Positions 55,274-63,954 of a stretch of DNA of 64,000 nt are shown here, one piece after another (positions within the stretch are counted from its first letter, which is position 1; each line of letters starts with the position of its first letter). Below the pieces are notes generated by a model that saw nothing but the letters and a program-made list of their open reading frames with translations, searched no databases and was not told where the DNA came from. Where the stretch lies: the NCBI RefSeq assembly GCF_044324875.1, contig NZ_CP172185.1; one strand, given 5' to 3'. Made by a program: the position numbers and the translations under genes. Source of the DNA: Escherichia coli (GTDB lineage: Bacteria; Pseudomonadota; Gammaproteobacteria; Enterobacterales; Enterobacteriaceae).

Positions 55274-55281
55274 GTATTCAT

Positions 55282-55452
55282 AATGGATTAGGTTCAGCAG
55301 TTGCTGAAGTGCTTGTAGAAACTTGTCCTGTGCCCATGCGTCGGGTGGGGGTTAAAGAGCGGTATGGCCAGGTTGAAACTCAGGACTTTTTACAGAGAGA
55401 GTACGGGTTAACCGCGCAAGCTATTGTGGCGGCAGCCAGAGAGCTATTGTAA
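55282..55452 (+). pseudogene. Transketolase C-terminal-domain remnant, truncated by the IS1 insertion
   Basis: Frame encodes ...GLGSAVAEVLVETCPVPMRRVGVKERYGQVETQDFLQREYGLTAQAIVAAARELL-stop, a typical transketolase C-terminal tail, beginning immediately after the IS1 right end with no upstream gene body. Confidence 0.55.
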
Positions 55453-55653
55453 TTCATGGAGTTTGTTTACCATTCTGTTTTTCTTAAAAGTGAGTGTCTG
55501 TGCGGTCACTAAACTCGGTAATAAAGCAGTTCATTGCAGGATAAGAAGCGTTTGGTTGTGTCGTTTTACCGTAAGAACCGACCGCCGTATGTATCCATTA
55601 AGCCAGTATTGGTAACGTAGGTGCCCACCTTTTCAAACTGGTGGGCGCCTGTT

Positions 55654-55826
55654 ATGGAGCAAAAACATTATCCGCAGAACCCCGCAGATCATTTTCAAAT
55701 GAGTTAAACTTCAAATGGTTAAACTGGTTTTGCAACCAGGAGCCTCTGTTGCCCGTATTGCCCGGGAACACGATATCAATGATAACCTCCTGTTCAAATG
55801 GCTCAGACTCTGGCAGAACGTAAGGT
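55654..55826 (+). pseudogene. Transposase helper (HTH OrfA-type) remnant of an unidentified IS
   Basis: Short frames encoding MEQKHYPQNPADHFQMS-stop and ...LQPGASVARIAREHDINDNLLFKWLRLWQ, resembling IS OrfA HTH segments; interrupted by stops. Confidence 0.3.
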
Positions 55827-55904
55827 AAAGGGAGATGAAAAAGGCAATAGCAGAACTGAGTGACAGTGAAACCATTCTGGCGTACAGGGTTGGATGGTGA
55901 AACT

Positions 55905-55938
55905 GATAAAAAACCCTCTGAAAATTCTGTCAGAGGGT
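55905..55938 (-). terminator. Candidate rho-independent terminator (minus strand)
   Basis: Perfect 8-bp stem ccctctga/tcagaggg with 8-nt loop, followed on the minus strand by T6. Confidence 0.35.
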
Positions 55939-56649
55939 GTAGTCAAAAATGGTAGATATTTACGATGCAGTAATGCTTTCACTCCGGTAATTAATTTCCG
56001 TGATTAACTGCTTTCGATCAATAAAGGAATTGCAAAAGTGTGATCTTGTTCACGACATTGTGGATGATAATATGCCTGATGTCTGAATCCGGAAACAGTG
56101 ATCTGGCGGTTTCATGTGAAGTTGACGGATAAAAAATCCGCACGACCAGACAGACGTGCGGTTTACGAAATTCGTAACAAGAGGCTTTTCTACGGATCAC
56201 GTGGTGCGTGCCACGTGAAATTTTTGTAGCGCAAAATGTGTGATGTGTAAATACAAGGAAGGAAAAAAGTTAAATCGGTGGAAGTCCATGCCTGCCACAT
56301 GTATGTCTGCATTCCTCGTTTTGAACAGAATTCTCACCAGACATCGTGAATTTCTCATTCAATCATCAGAGATATTACCCAGGATTTTTATTGTTTTGTG
56401 ATAGCAGTACTTTAAATGTTCAGATGCTAAAATAAGCGCGCTTATTATAATTATAGTTATGATGTTTTATCTGTATGTATTTTAATGATTTTCGCGTCAT
56501 TGCTTTTCTGCTGCTTAAATTGAAGGCGCATATTATACACAATAATATTCCTGGCATTATTAAATTAATAAAAGAGGATTCTTATCACTGTATTTTTGCT
56601 CCGCACTACCGTTCTGGCTGGTGAAGTAATAATACAGGAGAATAACAGA

Positions 56650-58197
56650 ATGCTTAAAAGACGTGATGCTTTTTTAAAGAAAAGCGCGCTGGCAGTGAGT
56701 GTGGCCCTGCTGCTCTCGGCTCAGGCTCAGGCTCAGGATATTTTAATCGGACCGATTGAACCTGGCGAAGATAATAGCTTTCTTGTTGGAGAATCAGTAG
56801 CTGGCCGTTCGATTGATAAAGTAAGAAATGTATGGTTGATTGGTGATGATTCTTTTTTATTAGACTCAAACAGGACTGTGCTTTTGGGGAATAATTCTGA
56901 TGTTGTGAACTCTCCGGGAAGTGTGAGTCTGGGGCATGATGCACTTATTGCTGACTCTGAATGGGGGACTGTTGCAGGAAAAGAAGCGTCACTTATTTCT
57001 TCTCGTCAGAGCTCGGCAATTGGTGCGTTTTCATCTGTGCAGGATTCTACCAGTTCTGTAGCTCTGGGCCATGGCTCACAGGTGTCGGGAGAAAATAACG
57101 TGGTATCTGTTGGTGCCGGGCCTGAGGGATATGGAGAGAGTGTCAAAGGAGCACCGGAAACCCGCCGGATTATAAATGTGTCTGATGGTATCAATAACAC
57201 AGATGCAGCGACGGTAGGGCAACTGAATGAACGATTTGATGATGCACAGGTCTTTTTGTTGCAGACGAATGAAAGAATTGACGAGACAGATAAACGTCTT
57301 TCAACAGTTCATGCTGAACTCAGCAGGGATATTATTGCAGGCACATCGGCAGCGGTGACGTATACAGATGTAACAGCGCTTGCACTTCAGGATGAGATAA
57401 AGGATGGGACGAACAAAGTACGTGATGAGTTGAAATCACAGGGAGACAGTCTGCGTGGTGAGATAGGCGGTGTATACAGAGATGCCCGTGCTCATACTGA
57501 CAGTCAGGTCACAGCAGTACGTGATGAACTGAAGGCAGAGGGAGACAGTCTGCGCGGTGAGATAGGCGGTGTATACAGAGATGCCCGTGCTCATACTGAC
57601 AGTCAGGTTACAGCAGTACGTGATGAACTCAGCAGGGATATTATTGCAGGCACATCGGCAGCGGTGGCGTATACGGATGCATCTTCTCTTGCTCTTCAGG
57701 ATGAAATAAAAGAAAAAGCGGATGAAACAGTTCAGGTTTCCCGGGCTTATACAGATAAAAGTGTACGGGATGCCCGTAAAGAAGCGAAAAGCCAGGCAGA
57801 ACATCTCAGCGATGTGCTTGTGAAGAACAGGGCGCAGACGGATGCAGCAATAGCCTCAAATACAGCAGCGATAAGGAATAACAGTCATCGTCTGGATTTG
57901 ACGGAAGCCTGGCAGAAGATGGCGACAGAGAGAATGAATAATATGCAGGAGCAGATTAAAGAGAACCGGAAGGAGTTAAGGGAGAGTGCAGCCCAGAGCG
58001 CGGCACTGGCAGGTCTTTTCCAGCCATACAGTGTTGGAAAATTTAACGCGACAGCAGCCGTTGGTGGTTACCGTGATGAGCAGGCCATTGCGGTGGGCGT
58101 GGGCTACCGTTTCACAGAGAATGTGGCAGGAAAAGTTGCAGTTGCTGCAGGTGGGTCATCCGCATCGTGGAATGCTGGTGTGAATTTTGAGTTCTGA
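56650..58197 (+). CDS. YadA-type trimeric autotransporter adhesin (515 aa; Eib/Saa-like size class)
   Basis: Signal peptide [29 protein letters not shown], repetitive coiled-coil stalk, and C-terminal YadA-like anchor ending ...[19 protein letters not shown] 9 nt upstream; AT-rich 5' region. Confidence 0.8.
57313..57730 (+). repeat. In-frame tandem and nested repeats inside the adhesin stalk
   Basis: A 105-bp unit (...[33 protein letters not shown]) occurs twice in tandem (about 57424-57528 and 57529-57633), flanked by two copies of a second roughly 100-bp unit ([16 protein letters not shown]...ALQDEIK) at 57313 and 57625. Confidence 0.7.
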
Positions 58198-58258
58198 CAG
58201 GTCAGGATTTAGATATCTGTCCCGGGGGGAGTCCCCCGGGATATAATGAGGTACAGAG

Positions 58259-58714
58259 ATGCTGGATATAATCCTGGCGACGAGAGATATTTATTTTGAA
58301 AAAGCCCTGCGAGAGATATTTGGAACCGTAAGCAGTCGAATCAGATATATAGAAGATGCCATATCAGACAGAAGAAGGGTGCAGTCAGGCAGGTCATTCA
58401 GATATTATTTTGTATTCTGTGATGATGAGTATACAGATATTGTTCGTATTCTTTTTACCGGAGAGGCCTGCTGTATTCTGAATAAGTCGATGCTGAATCT
58501 GAGAGCGGCCGGAGGTGTGTTGACGCTGGAAGAGCGCAGAGCGGTACTGAACCGGTATTACAGAGGTTTAAGTATTGCGGAGATTACAGAAGAGACGGGG
58601 CAGAATGACAAGACGGTATACGGTCATCTTCGTCGTGCACTGCAGCGGTCTGGATTCCGGAAGGGGCGTTTTATAAAGGGGAGAGAAGCGGCGGGGGATT
58701 CAGGTGTTGAATAA
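58259..58714 (+). CDS. Putative transcriptional regulator with C-terminal sigma-70 region 4 / LuxR-type HTH
   Basis: 151-aa ORF; C-terminal LTLEERRAVLNRYYRGLSIAEITEETGQNDKTVYGHLRRALQ resembles sigma region 4/GerE-type HTH; 60 bp downstream of the adhesin gene. Confidence 0.45.
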   Translation: MLDIILATRDIYFEKALREIFGTVSSRIRYIEDAISDRRRVQSGRSFRYYFVFCDDEYTDIVRILFTGEACCILNKSMLNLRAAGGVLTLEERRAVLNRYYRGLSIAEITEETGQNDKTVYGHLRRALQRSGFRKGRFIKGREAAGDSGVE

Positions 58715-58788
58715 TGTATCTTATATTGTGATATTGAACCGCCCCGGGAATCCTGGAGACTAAACTCCCTGAGAAAGAGGTAAACAGA

Positions 58789-59115
58789 ATGACTAAAAAT
58801 ACTCGTTTTTCCCCCGAAGTCCGTCAGAGGGCGATTCGTATGGTTCTGGAAAGTCAGGGCGAATATGACTCACAGTGGGCGGCAATTTGTTCCATTGCCC
58901 CAAAGATTGGCTGTACACCGGAGACTCTGCGTGTCTGGGTACGCCAGCATGAGCGGGATACCGGAGGCGGTGATGGCGGGCTCACCACCGCTGAACGTCA
59001 GCGTCTGAAAGAGCTGGAACGTGAAAATCGTGAACTGCGCCGCAGTAACGATATCCTTCGCCAGGCTTCCGCTTATTTTGCGAAGGCGGAGTTCGACCGC
59101 CTCTGGAAAAAGTGA
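58789..59115 (+). CDS. IS629 transposase OrfA
   Basis: 108-aa [63 protein letters not shown]... matching IS629 OrfA. Confidence 0.9.
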
Positions 59116-60002
59116 TGCCACTGCTGGATAAGCTGCGTAAGCTGTACGGGGTCGGACCGGTATGCAGTGAACTACATATTGCCCCGTCAACGTATTACCA
59201 CTGTCAGCAACAGCGACATCATCCTGATAAACGCAGTGCCCGTGCGCAGCGCGATGACTGGCTGAAGAAAGAGATACTGCGCGTATACGATGGGAATCAT
59301 CAGGTATACGGTGTGCGTAAAGTCTGGCGTCAGTTGTTACGGGAAGGAATCAGGGTAGCCAGATGTACAGTGGCGCGCCTCATGGCGGTTATGGGACTTG
59401 CCGGTGTTCTCCGGGGTAAAAAGGTCCGCACTACCGTCAGCCGGAAAGCCGTTGCCGCAGGCGACCGCGTAAACCGTCAGTTTGTGGCAGAACGTCCTGA
59501 CCAGTTGTGGGTGGCTGATTTTACTTACGTCAGCACATGGCAGGGGGTCGTCTATGTGGCGTTCATCATTGATGTGTTTGCCGGATACATCGTGGGGTGG
59601 CGGGTCTCATCGTCTATGGAAACGACATTCGTGCTGGATGCTCTGGAGCAGGCGTTATGGGCCCGTCGACCGTCCGGCACAGTCCATCACAGTGATAAAG
59701 GTTCTCAGTATGTATCGCTGGCCTACACACAGCGGCTTAAGGAAGCCGGATTACTGGCATCAACAGGAAGTACTGGTGACTCGTATGACAACGCGATGGC
59801 GGAGAGCATCAATGGCCTTTACAAAGCGGAGGTAATACACCGTAAGAGCTGGAAAAACCGGACAGAAGTGGAGCTGGCCACACTCACGTGGGTGGACTGG
59901 TATAACAATCGACGATTGCTGGAAAGGCTGGGCCATATCCCACCGGCAGAAGCAGAAAAAGCTTATTATGCTTCCATCGGAAACGATGATCTGGCAGCCT
60001 GA
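59112..60002 (+). CDS. IS629 transposase OrfB (DDE integrase core)
   Basis: 296-aa ORF overlapping orfA by 4 nt; motifs [16 protein letters not shown] and [15 protein letters not shown]. Confidence 0.9.
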
Positions 60003-60410
60003 GTTCACAGATAAAACACTCTCCAGGAAACCCGGGGCGGTTCATATCGGTGCTGCTGCTGTTATTTTTTGTTGTATTTGTGACGAATGGTTAAGAATAA
60101 AACATGAGTTGGTGATTATCAGGACAGGTTGCTTGTATATGAAGATAACAAAGGCGGCATTTATTTTTGCGCTGTCAGTGTGGAGTGTTGCTGTGATATG
60201 TCTTTTATTATTTGTACTGGTTGTTCTGGGATAGCTATAGTGGAATTATTATTTTTTTAAGACTATGGTTTATATTTTTATTCGGCAATATTTCTGTAAA
60301 CAATTAAATATCAGAAAGGCGTGTTGTATGCGTGAACACGCCTGAGTATGTATACAGAGATTGTTAATTTGGAGAGAATAATTACAGTTGTTATTTATTT
60401 GACGTCCTGA

Positions 60411-60695
60411 TTAGTGAAAAAACCAGTCATCAGCAGTTTCCCAGACTTCCTGCAGCGTTTCCTGTATGAACTTCTGAGCGTTTTCTTTATCTACGGCTCT
60501 TAAAATGGTCAGTCCGTCATTACTGGCGGATTTTACTATAACCTCCACATCGTCATATCGTTTTCTGGTACGGCGAGACATTTCCTGTTGTAGAGCAGGT
60601 ACAGAGCCTTTTGGCATTTTGCTGAATTTTTCTTTAGCGATACAGATCTCAATACGAATAAAAGTCCCTCTGCACTGTGTTATTTTTATCTGCAT
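60411..60695 (-). CDS. DinI-family protein (DNA-damage-inducible protein I-like)
   Basis: C-terminus [18 protein letters not shown] matches the DinI signature [25 protein letters not shown] resembles the DinI N-terminus MRIEVTIAK; true start within the 94-aa track ORF is uncertain. Confidence 0.6.
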
Positions 60696-61541: not shown

Positions 61542-61981
61542 CTACAGACTATTTTCATTCGGGAAAGCACCTTTGGTTTTGGTCAGTTTCCTGAACTGGC
61601 GATGGACTGATTCAATCGCATTTGTGGTGTAAATGACCTTGCGGATATTTGCCGGATAGCGGAAGTATGCTGACAGGTTTTCCCACTTGCGACGCCACGA
61701 CTGAAGCACCACCGGATATTGCTGGCCCCATTTCGCCTCCAGCTCATCCAGCGCCGTTTCTGCGGCTTCTTTCGACACCGCGCGATATACCGGCTTCAGG
61801 TCGGCCATGAACGCTTTGTGGTGTTTTGCCCTCCAGATTCAGCGCCAGCACCGTGTAAACGACCTTGCTCTGGTAGCGGCCATCCTCCCTGATTTTATAG
61901 TGAATGGCATCCAGCCATACGAAGGGGTAAACCTTCTCCAGCGGGCGCTGTTGCCACTGTTTTAACTCAGGAATGACCTTA
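61542..61981 (-). pseudogene. IS256-family (mutator-type) transposase remnant, internally deleted and truncated by the IS66-family insertion
   Basis: Minus-strand frames encode ...IPELKQWQQRPLEKVYPFVWLDAIHYKIREDGRYQSKVVYTVLALNLEGK and, in another frame, MADLKPVYRAVSKEAAETALDELEAKWGQQYPVVLQSWRRKWENLSAYFRYPANIRKVIYTTNAIESVHRQFRKLTKTKGAFPNENSL; the segment between them is too short. Confidence 0.7.
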
Positions 61982-62018: not shown

Positions 62019-63557
62019 TTATTCAGCTGGCAGTGCTATGCGCCACGGAAGCAGTTCGCTGACCCGGTTGACCGGCCAGTCTGCTATGACGCCAAGCACA
62101 TGGCGAAGGTAGCTTTCTGGATCCACGTCATTCAGTTTGCACGTCCCTATCAGGCTGTACAGTAGCGCTCCCCGCTCACCACCATGGCCAGAGCCGAAGA
62201 ACAGGAAGTTTTTACGACCCAGACTTACCGCCCGCAGGGCATTTTCAGCGATGTTGTTGTCGATTTCCACCCAGCCATCGTTCGCATAGTACGTCAGTGC
62301 CGGCCACTGGTTAAGTGCGTACGCGAACGCCTTCGCCAACTCTGAGTGTCGCGACAGGGTCTTCATCTTTTCACGCAACCAGCTTTCCAGGGATTTCAAC
62401 AGCGGTTTCGTTTTTCGCTGACGTTCAGCAAGCCGCTGCTCTGCCGGCATTCCCCTTATATCCGCCTCTATGGCGTACAACTGACCGATCTGCTCCAGGG
62501 CTTCTTCCGTCAGTGCTGACGGGATGCGGACGTGCACATCGTGGATCTTTCGGCGGGCATGAGCCCAGCAGGCAGCTTCCGTTATCCCACCATTGCGATA
62601 CAGCTCGTTGAACCCGGCGTACGCATCCGCTTGCAGCACACCGCTGAAGCAAGCAAGATGAGTCTGCGGATGGATGCCTTTTCTGTCCGGGCTGTAAGCG
62701 AACCACACTGCAGGTGCCAACGCTGACCCGGCATTGCGGTCATCACGAACATACGCCCACAACCGCCCGGTCTTCGTCTTCTTATTACCCGGCATCAGTA
62801 CCTGGACCGGGGTATCATCGGCATGGAGTTTGCCGTCAGTCATGACATAGCCATGAAGCGCCTCTTCCAGCGGAGACAGCAGCCGGCAGCATGCATCCAC
62901 CCAGCCCGACAGCAGTGAACGGCTCAGCTCCACACCTTGCCGGCCGTATATTTCTGACTGGCGATACAGCGGGGTGTGCTCTGCATACTTCGAGGTCAGC
63001 ACGCGGGCCAGCAGCCCCGGTCCGGCGATACCCCGCTCGATGGGCCGCGAAGGTGCAGGTGCCTGCACGATGGCATCGCACTGAGTACAGGCATGTTTTT
63101 CCCGTACCGTCCGGATAACCCGGAAGGCGCTACGCATCAACTCCAGCTGTTCGGCGGTATCCTCGCCCAGATAGCTCAGTGAACCGCCGCAGTTCGGGCA
63201 GCACGGCGCCGCAGGCAACAGTCGCTTTTCGTCACGGGGTAGTGATTCAGGGAACGGCTTACGGATGCGGGTCTGACGCAACGGACGCTGTACTGCCGGG
63301 TCATACACCCTACCAGTCAGCGTATCGCTCTCTTTCTGAAGCCGGTTCAGATCGGCTTCCATTTGTGCGATACGGCGGGAGACTTTTTCGGAACGACTGC
63401 CGAAGTTCATCCGGCGGAGTTTATCCAGCTGCGCCTGCAGATGGTCTATTTCGCGCTCCCGGTTGCTCAGCTTTTCCTGCAGGGCGTGGATCAGCGCTTC
63501 CTGTTCGGCCAGGCGCTGTTTCAGCAGGAAGATGTCGTCAGAAGAGATGTCGTTCAT
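62019..63557 (-). CDS. IS66-family transposase (large ORF)
   Basis: 512-aa ORF with N-terminal coiled coil ([20 protein letters not shown]), zinc-finger CCPNCGG...CTQCD and DDE core typical of IS66 transposases. Confidence 0.85.
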
Positions 63558-63606: not shown

Positions 63607-63954
63607 TTACAGCATGGTCAGGGAGGTCAGCAGCCGCTTAGGCTGTCGCCAGTCGATACCTTCCAGCAGCATCGCCAGCTGCGCCTGTGTAAGGAACACT
63701 TTGCCATCACGGGCTGACGGCCAGGCGAAGCGCCCACGCTCCAGCCGTTTGGTCAGGAGGCACAGTCCGTCACCGGTGGACCACAGCAGTTTAACCTGAC
63801 TGCCGCTGCGGCCCCGGAAAATGAAAACATGGCCGGACATGGGATCGTCTTTCAGCGCCGTCTGTACTTTCGCAGCCAGGCCGTTGAAGCCATTTCTCAT
63901 ATCGGTGATACCGGCAACCAGCCAAATTTTGGTCCCGGAAGGTAAAGGGATCAT
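63607..63954 (-). CDS. IS66-family accessory protein TnpB (orf2)
   Basis: 115-aa [34 protein letters not shown]...[36 protein letters not shown] matching IS66 Orf2. Confidence 0.88.

Follow-up and report, generated by a model that had tools for sequence, protein, structure and literature searches.

A helix-turn-helix gene downstream of a trimeric autotransporter adhesin gene of Escherichia coli: a probable divergent member of the ORF-156 family within a shared adhesin module

Introduction

The small trimeric autotransporter adhesins (TAAs) of Escherichia coli, such as Eib, Cla and Yal, affect chain-like adherence, serum resistance and immunoglobulin binding. These proteins are poorly expressed in the laboratory, and their control is largely unexplained apart from that exerted in trans by IbrAB. 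To our knowledge, no regulators of the small TAAs borne by E. coli prophages have been described other than IbrA and IbrB, which act in trans from a separate island and are unrelated in sequence to the ORF-156-type proteins, whose genes lie directly 3' of eib genes in prophages. The present study deals with a stretch of 64,000 nucleotides of E. coli DNA (contig NZ_CP172185.1 of assembly GCF_044324875.1; hereafter, the window), and in particular with a gene at positions 58259-58714 that follows a TAA gene and encodes a protein with a helix-turn-helix (HTH) domain. This gene is referred to below as the HTH gene.

That a small regulator gene may be coupled to an adhesin gene is already a familiar idea. 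EcpR (MatA), from the ecp operon of E. coli, is a LuxR-type regulator encoded by an adhesin operon. EcpR is encoded upstream of its operon, whereas the HTH gene of the window is found after the adhesin gene. The closest counterparts of the window protein are ORF-156A, C, D and E of the prophages P-EibA, C, D and E from strain ECOR-9. This family has been annotated since 2000, and no characterisation of it was found in the searchable literature. Cla and Yal are small TAA lineages of E. coli that have been described recently (bioRxiv 10.64898/2025.12.25.695649), and the expression of EibG is conditionally regulated, differing between static and shaken cultures, with no local regulator described (PMC4352079).

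What is new here is that an island-borne cassette is linked to the Eib prophage module, that an HTH is recognised in the ORF-156 family, and that a three-gene architecture emerges; nothing in this is mechanistically surprising yet. A small HTH protein and a putative membrane peptide appear to travel with the adhesin gene in the island cassette and in the Eib prophages alike, and the analysis provides a first functional prediction for phrog_6585, the phage protein family to which the ORF-156 proteins belong. If it had no regulatory role, the window protein would be merely another hypothetical HTH protein.

The HTH gene and its product

The open reading frame (ORF) at 58259-58714, on the plus strand, encodes 151 amino acids from an ATG start, and no longer ORF is possible in the same frame. 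A GAGG sequence at 58248-58251, 7 nucleotides 5' of the ATG, provides good Shine-Dalgarno (SD) spacing. The start lies 61 bp past the stop codon of the TAA gene, in keeping with the preliminary description of this DNA, which had placed a stand-alone gene immediately downstream of the adhesin. The ORF represents a real gene, and its product is a small cytoplasmic protein of two domains that is predicted to bind DNA. The N-terminal domain (residues 1-86; 58259-58516) is homologous to the N-terminal domain of ORF-156/phrog_6585. It is followed by an HTH of the sigma-70 region 4/LuxR type (residues 87-131; 58517-58651), recognised with PF08281, AlphaFold2 and Foldseek, and by a basic, Gly-rich C-terminal tail (residues 132-151, together with the stop codon; 58652-58714), which carries the polymorphisms A144V and A145T.

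A C-terminal HTH resembling sigma-70 region 4 or GerE/LuxR, accompanied by neither a receiver domain nor sigma region 2, had also been proposed in the preliminary description, and both parts of that proposal hold. The Pfam family Sigma70_r4_2 (PF08281) matches residues 87-130 with E=2.2e-7 and 30.9 bits, above its gathering cut-off of 25.7, and the other, weaker Pfam matches are all to short HTH families. From NCBIfam, only the C-terminal parts of models for extracytoplasmic function (ECF) sigma factors were matched, with 12-21 bits versus cut-offs of 43-350. The whole protein gave no match to Sigma70_r2, Response_reg or GerE (PF00196) in Pfam at E<=1, and residues 1-86 alone matched no Pfam or NCBIfam model, including PF04542 and PF00072, even at E<=10. 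The window protein is not a sigma factor, because it has no region 2, and it is not taken to be a response regulator either, because no receiver domain was detected in it.

Structure prediction agrees with the sequence on the C-terminal HTH. AlphaFold2 produced no usable model from single-sequence input, with a predicted local distance difference test (pLDDT) score of 37, while a shallow alignment of the HTH only gave pLDDT values of 91-96 for the helices at residues 90-101, 106-113 and 117-131. The resulting three-helix model is confident, although for the HTH only, and the two runs conflict on the N-terminal half, which is built of strands in one and of helices in the other. The best matches of the modelled HTH among PDB structures in Foldseek were LuxR/NarL-type domains and ECF sigma-4 domains, all with E>=0.08, since the well-modelled part amounts to only some 45 residues. 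Within this set, the match to 3hug has a root-mean-square deviation of 1.7 Å over 41 residues, with 41% identity. This structure holds region 4 of the ECF sigma factor SigL from Mycobacterium tuberculosis, and such a region is also the best profile match for the window HTH; in contrast to ECF sigma factors, the window protein lacks region 2 and has an unrelated N-terminal domain. The structural neighbours also comprise GerE, VpsT, RcsB and EvgA, in which a LuxR-type HTH is combined with non-canonical N-terminal domains. With neither a PF00196 match nor a structural E-value below 0.08, the window protein is only a possible member of the GerE/LuxR family.

The names given to the protein reflect this mixture of similarities. 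RefSeq calls it a 'sigma factor-like helix-turn-helix DNA-binding protein', and in other sources it appears as a sigma-70 family factor, as a NarL/FixJ response regulator or as a hypothetical protein. No paper mentioning this HTH gene was found in the literature, and PADLOC returned no matches.

Relationship to the ORF-156 family

A single-sequence HMMER search of 1.84 billion proteins retrieved no homologue of the window protein beyond near-identical sequences. Word-index and exhaustive HMMER searches yielded near-identical sequences from E. coli and Salmonella, plus weak matches to HTH-repeat proteins at E of about 3e-4, and phrog_6585, a PHROG with no assigned function, matched residues 3-75 marginally (E=3.3e-4). 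A full-length tblastn match in the phage record MT836610 (E=5) was discarded as an unrelated ORF. The link to ORF-156 was reached through synteny on plasmid p100 and profile comparison, not through single-sequence searches. On p100, a short TAA whose anchor is 50% identical to that of the window is followed, 82 bp on, by a gene for a 160-residue hypothetical protein, which starts MKVIIATRNRYMEY, compared with MLDIILATRDIYFEK in the window protein. The p100-type protein belongs to a diverse family from E. coli and Citrobacter (50-100% identity). The reference members of the ORF-156 type match phrog_6585 over their full length (E=2e-93 to 6e-73), and members of phrog_6585 are annotated as ORF-156A, C, D and E, encoded directly 3' of eibA, C, D and E in the ECOR-9 prophages (AF151091, AF151674-AF151676). 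In total, phrog_6585 is represented in 174 phage records and in at least 439 complete genomes.

When the variants of the window protein were compared by hhalign with 20 ORF-156-type proteins, the alignment extended over 130 columns and covered residues 3-134, thus including both domains, with E=4.5e-6 and a probability of 86.5%, a value which is good and not overwhelming and which, as a point against the assignment, was obtained with a window-side profile that is effectively one sequence. In the joint alignment, the window protein and the ORF-156 proteins are collinear. The motifs that they have in common are ILATR(D/N)xY(F/L)E and CD...(I/L)(V/M)R..(L/M)F.G in the N-terminal domain, to which LT(L/M).E...Y.(Y/F)R, E.G...KTV...L and (N/S)G can be added. 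The window protein resembles ORF-156A, C, D and E in its size class (151 versus 156-175 residues), in its two-domain layout and in motifs of both domains; it differs from them in being only about 20% identical and in lacking a segment of some 15 residues between the two domains. These data make it very probable that the window protein is an HTH protein belonging to the ORF-156 family, and a placement as a very divergent member of ORF-156/phrog_6585 suits it best. The N-terminal half would therefore be a conserved domain common to both, which goes beyond what the preliminary description had noted.

The best solved relative of the ORF-156 family profile is GerE (1fse, E=0.046), and one of the 20 ORF-156 members matches PF00196 (E=0.056), both of these similarities being weak. 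Three to five members show weak N-terminal matches to the ABL alpha/beta domain of RcsC (E 0.012-0.15), a hint, and no more, that the N-terminal domain of ORF-156 adopts an alpha/beta fold.

One subclade of the family (P0173/P0176) is found in a different setting, 450-490 bp upstream of kpsF-kpsE-kpsD and downstream of ImpA_N/VasL genes resembling those of type VI secretion systems. Its loci hold neither TAA sequence nor the small membrane ORF described below (L034:4001-4516, L040:4001-4492). The sequences come from draft E. coli genomes and one metagenome, and complete genomes yielded one partial match.

A module shared by prophages, a plasmid and islands

The genes of the ORF-156 type occupy a constant position. 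In 15 of the 15 prophage or plasmid loci examined, including the EibA and EibE records, such a gene begins 82-90 bp past a TAA gene with a YadA anchor, this TAA being present and not called in two of them, and the TAAs of these loci are EibD-like. The gene order at the right end of the lambdoid prophages is J, lom, stf, tfa, TAA and ORF-156, followed by dinI on the opposite strand. A collinear module is found in the window, where the TAA gene, a hairpin, the HTH gene, an ORF for a small membrane peptide and a DinI gene on the opposite strand follow one another, so that the HTH gene has the same position as ORF-156A, C, D and E with respect to the YadA-anchor TAA and hairpin on one side and to the membrane-peptide ORF and dinI on the other.

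The hairpin of the window (58218-58243, plus strand) is GC-rich and consists of an 11-bp stem and a 4-nucleotide loop with no U-tract; it was identified by folding and varies by one single-nucleotide polymorphism across 16 loci. The records AF151676 and AF151091 also show an annotated hairpin between eib and orf-156, in the corresponding position, and there it carries a T-run. Two differences from the Eib prophages are thus the lack of a T-run after the window hairpin and the passenger of the window adhesin, which is unrelated and not EibD-like. The hairpin at 58218-58243 is also a recurrent insertion site of IS421, an insertion sequence (IS) of the IS4 family, with duplication of 58225-58236 at the insertion (loci L004, L020, L007 and L008).

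The small membrane ORF of the module had not been noted in the preliminary description. It encodes 31 hydrophobic residues (MKITKAAFIFALSVWSVAVICLLLFVLVVLG; 60139-60234, plus strand), lies within the conserved cassette, which extends to 60246, and is not annotated by the Prokaryotic Genome Annotation Pipeline (PGAP). In 8 of the 8 Eib-linked loci checked (e.g., L043:4471-4653 and L031:5525-5653), ORF-156 is followed by a counterpart of the ORF-60A type with the consensus ...RYT(A/T)GAMCFMLFVWLGGVV..., a small single-pass membrane-peptide ORF that corresponds to ORF-60A in AF151091. No gaps are needed to align the 31-residue sequence with the C-terminal 29 residues of the prophage peptides; the two have 8 identities, VW among them, and finish at the same residue, a similarity that is only suggestive between sequences this short. 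Searches returned no family match for the 31-residue ORF, and no clear counterpart was detected in the plasmid p100 locus. This ORF may represent a third conserved gene of the module.

The DinI-like gene of the window (60411-60695, minus strand) has the same relative position as in the Eib prophages. It shows about 79% DNA identity to the DinI region beside ORF-156 in two of the ORF-156 loci (L025 and L030), in which DinI genes (PF06183) were called. As judged from these comparisons, the TAA gene, the hairpin, the HTH gene and the membrane-peptide ORF form a module that appears to move as one piece among prophages, a plasmid, an islet between phosphotransferase system (PTS)/transketolase genes and a lysozyme-inhibitor gene, and pathogenicity islands. 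A TAA from an Enterobacter plasmid (43% identical) is followed by an IS3 element, and no ORF-156-like gene was found after it.

Distribution and linkage to the adhesin gene

Among 5,426 complete E. coli genomes, 183 contain the HTH gene; it occupies 287 places in them, with a maximum of 6 in one genome. Every copy is chromosomal, and 182 of these genomes hold a copy with at least 99% identity. The 3' end of the TAA gene likewise occurs in 183 genomes, and both genes were present in every locus inspected. The preliminary description had suggested a regulator belonging to the adhesin locus, and conservation beside homologous adhesin genes is indeed observed, both in 183/183 genomes and, at greater distance, for ORF-156 beside Eib-type TAAs. 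The junction from the TAA gene to the HTH gene is contiguous in 163 of the 183 genomes; in the rest, an IS (often IS421) occupies the intergenic hairpin, or else a truncation affects the gene or the adhesin. The 61-bp spacing did not vary among the uninterrupted loci inspected, which represent at least three genomic contexts.

In window coordinates, the conserved cassette spans 55274-58734 plus 60045-60246. In strains BEN2908 and MRY15-117, it is flanked by a PTS/transketolase operon and a lysozyme-inhibitor gene, and in SCU-115, F11 and GF4 it lies in pathogenicity islands beside aerobactin genes, while both contexts are found together in the genome of TUM1886 (NZ_CP128970.1). The two copies of TUM1886 share the adhesin allele and a private V96L change of the HTH protein, which suggests a recent intragenomic duplication or gene conversion; elsewhere, cassette copies reach 6-8 per genome. 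The island-borne cassette retains the 3' end of a transketolase-family gene (55274-55460) and a fragment of an IS3-type orfA (approximately 55640-55815). These remnants of the metabolic islet suggest that the islet version was the donor of the island copies. A search of IMG/VR returned the same E. coli islet only. About 3% of complete E. coli genomes carry the cassette, and it is common among isolates from poultry and extraintestinal pathogenic E. coli.

Proposed role and alternative explanations

The explanation favoured here, to which we give almost an even chance, is that a two-domain protein of the ORF-156 type modulates the adhesin module; that the window protein regulates the adjacent adhesin itself is a tentative proposal, with chances somewhat below even. 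In this mechanism, the HTH protein would bind DNA near the module and modulate transcription from the AT-rich, probably H-NS-silenced promoter of the adhesin gene, and low-level synthesis of the protein itself would depend on read-through of the hairpin after that gene. An AT-rich upstream region is typical of acquired genes silenced by H-NS. The promoter scan gave no sigma-70-like match for the HTH gene itself, and it is for this reason that hairpin read-through is considered its probable route of expression; the lack of a promoter match, together with the good SD spacing, fits co-transcription with the adhesin gene.

Several observations weigh against this explanation. Nothing was found in the literature that ties any member of the family to adhesin expression, or that deals with the function of ORF-156. 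Moreover, Sandt, Hopper and Hill reportedly observed in 2002 that Eib expression is low in K-12 lysogens with complete eib prophages as long as ibrAB is not provided; since such lysogens carry orf-156, ORF-156 would not be a sufficient activator. In F11 and GF4, IS421 parts the HTH gene from an intact adhesin gene, and in the Eib prophages a strong terminator, formed by the hairpin and its T-run, stands between eib and orf-156. The subclade upstream of kpsF-kpsE-kpsD is devoid of a TAA, which argues against a strict dedication to adhesins and fits regulators tied to surface-structure loci. Finally, the variation of the window gene itself is unfavourable: 16 loci show 6 polymorphic sites, of which 6 are nonsynonymous and 0 synonymous (I20V, T23I, S46L, V96L, A144V and A145T), and alleles with frameshifts or IS truncations turn up commonly in the protein database.

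These last data are the core of a first alternative, which we consider unlikely: in this lineage, the gene would be a decaying passenger, derived from a functional gene of the ORF-156 type and under relaxed selection, whose presence reflects linkage within a recently spread cassette. In addition to the excess of nonsynonymous changes, additional amino-acid changes are on record in the protein database, L89P and G103R in the HTH domain among them, along with several frameshifted alleles and a 74-residue truncated form on 145 contigs. IS insertions are found in or beside the gene, and with copies that are all at least 99% identical, linkage alone explains the co-occurrence with the adhesin. The adjoining 747 bp of the TAA 3' end contain 11 synonymous and 8 nonsynonymous changes, a difference from the HTH gene with p=0.017 (Fisher, one-sided), and a 6:0 ratio would not be unusual under neutrality (p=0.20). 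Against decay, at least 1000 contigs and 15 of the 16 compared loci hold the exact 151-residue sequence intact, and no variant was seen in residues 104-143, which include the recognition helix, although this was noticed post hoc. Furthermore, recent polymorphism is expected to be rich in nonsynonymous changes, and the excess therefore weakens, and does not refute, a function in this lineage. The wider ORF-156 family, with pN values of 0.12-0.31 versus pS values of 0.45-0.87 and dN/dS (the ratio of nonsynonymous to synonymous substitution rates) of 0.08-0.23 where computable, is clearly under purifying selection and functional. The window's own gene family is too uniform for constraint to be judged. 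It differs from ORF-156 in lying in islands and not in an intact prophage, in having almost no sequence diversity and in showing no detectable constraint.

A second alternative, also improbable, is that of a functional transcription factor with another target, be it capsule, flagella, other surface loci, or prophage or host genes. Such a role would fit the subclade found 450-490 bp upstream of kpsF with no adhesin, the strong terminators that part eib from orf-156, the location of ORF-156 genes in the late region of lambdoid prophages beside dinI, and the up to 6 near-identical copies of the window gene in one genome. It fits less well with the tight linkage to TAA genes, which holds at two levels of evolutionary distance and across several types of mobile element, and the kps-adjacent form is rare in complete genomes.

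The favoured explanation, modulation of the adhesin module, can be extended into a more specific scheme, which is speculative and which we consider quite unlikely as a whole. According to it, ORF-156-type proteins would be the missing cis regulators of the small TAAs of E. coli (Eib, Cla/Yal-like and island-borne) and would form part of a three-part switch. The HTH protein would act on the AT-rich adhesin promoter, its level would be set by read-through of the post-adhesin hairpin, and its activity would be gated by the adjacent single-pass membrane peptide, in the manner of a miniature pair of sigma and anti-sigma factors. For the N-terminal domain, the scheme would imply a new fold with a sensory or oligomerisation role.

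A related, and very improbable, alternative is that the HTH protein acts through RNA polymerase, as a mimic of sigma region 4 or as a split sigma-like subunit, possibly restrained by the membrane peptide. Its best sequence match is indeed to sigma-70 region 4, the closest solved match is SigL region 4 with its anti-sigma factor, and a single-pass membrane-peptide ORF is conserved directly downstream. Nevertheless, the protein has no region 2 and the module encodes no partner that could supply one, the ORF-156 family profile matches regulators of the GerE/LuxR type best, the cytoplasmic part of the peptide is far too short for any known anti-sigma domain, and the kps-adjacent members have no peptide ORF. 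A response regulator of the NarL/FixJ type with a phosphorylatable receiver is extremely improbable, since one cluster member named 'DNA-binding NarL/FixJ family response regulator' by IMG, a weak match to the UhpA model (E=0.033), an N-terminal pattern compatible by eye with beta-alpha-beta plus a CDD motif, and the weak RcsC ABL matches of 3-5 ORF-156 members are set against an N-terminal domain that has no Response_reg match on its own, that is about 35 residues shorter than a receiver, and that is accompanied by no cognate kinase gene in the module.

The adhesin gene and its upstream region

The TAA gene of the window (56650-58197, plus strand) encodes 515 amino acids from the ATG at 56650, preceded by the SD sequence CAGGAG at 56636-56641. 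The mechanically called ORF would give 533 residues from a TTG at 56596, and the start assigned by PGAP in identical loci gives 515. The C-terminus matches YadA_anchor (PF03895, E=3.3e-16), a fragment of YadA_stalk and PDB 2lme (E=2.2e-17), and the N-terminus resembles, by eye, a signal peptide. The passenger is hypervariable and contains repeats, while the anchor is conserved: alleles of different strains have 369-557 residues and are 67-100% identical. Internal direct repeats of 99-114 bp with 86-94% identity are found at 57299-57710, and the alleles differ in repeat number and in the head region, their last 250 or so codons and the downstream HTH gene being at least 99% identical.

The last 120 or so residues of the window adhesin are 56-58% identical to Eib-type TAAs. 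Over the passenger, which is unrelated, sequence comparison ruled out an EibD-like adhesin, and identity with Saa or with any plasmid-borne TAA was likewise discarded, as was that of the locus with the tkt1 island of avian pathogenic E. coli (APEC) O1. Nor is the window adhesin the 'eYadA' of APEC XM, which belongs to a different locus between cueR and ybbJ. This core-located TAA (NZ_CP025328.1, 519174-520898) is followed by a lipoprotein-like ORF of 140 residues and a membrane ORF of 67 residues, so that here, too, small genes follow a TAA gene; the paper describing it is silent on possible polar effects of the deletion (PMC12955052).

The region upstream of the adhesin gene has a GC content of 34-37% and includes a variable patch of about 105 bp (56403-56507, plus strand), which holds the only sigma-70-like promoter match within it, TTCAGA-18-TATTAT at 56419-56448. 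In an alignment of 7 loci, the flanks of the patch are essentially identical, whereas the patch itself comes in two haplotypes with about 60% identity. The window, TUM1886 and MRY15-117 have form A, and SCU-115, BEN2908, F11 and one IMG/VR contig have form B; the haplotype does not follow the adhesin allele. A 16-bp palindrome (AATAAGCGCGCTTATT; 56432-56447) was rejected as an operator, given that it exists in form A only, and an invertible promoter switch was also rejected, as the patch is, by eye, collinear between the haplotypes and not inverted.

Insertion sequences around the HTH gene

The HTH gene is followed by an IS of 1310 bp of the IS3 family (58735-60044, plus strand), with orfA at 58789-59115 and orfB at 59112-60002, coding for 108 and 296 amino acids. 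It begins 20 bp past the stop codon of the HTH gene, where the preliminary description had placed a copy of IS629; this position is correct, and the name is only approximate. The element has terminal inverted repeats (TGAAC...GTTCA), is flanked by a 3-bp target duplication (TAT; 58732-58734 and 60045-60047), and contains an ALIL frameshift pseudoknot (59070-59186), the sole Rfam match. Among its matches with 99.9% identity, the only label is 'IS3 family transposase'. 'IS629/IS1203-like' is a safe name, because the element is 95.0% identical to a copy of IS1203 annotated by PGAP (66 mismatches, no gaps).

The exact IS junction of the window was found in 0 of the 5,426 complete E. coli genomes, and the uninterrupted sequence at this site was seen in 15 other loci. 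The insertion leaves the HTH gene intact and separates it from the small downstream ORF. Further IS debris is present at the end of the window, namely a fragment of an IS256-type transposase gene (61542-61808, minus strand) and tnpC and tnpB of the IS66 family (62019-63557 and 63607-63954, minus strand), remnants which indicate that the cassette sits in a heavily IS-ridden island.

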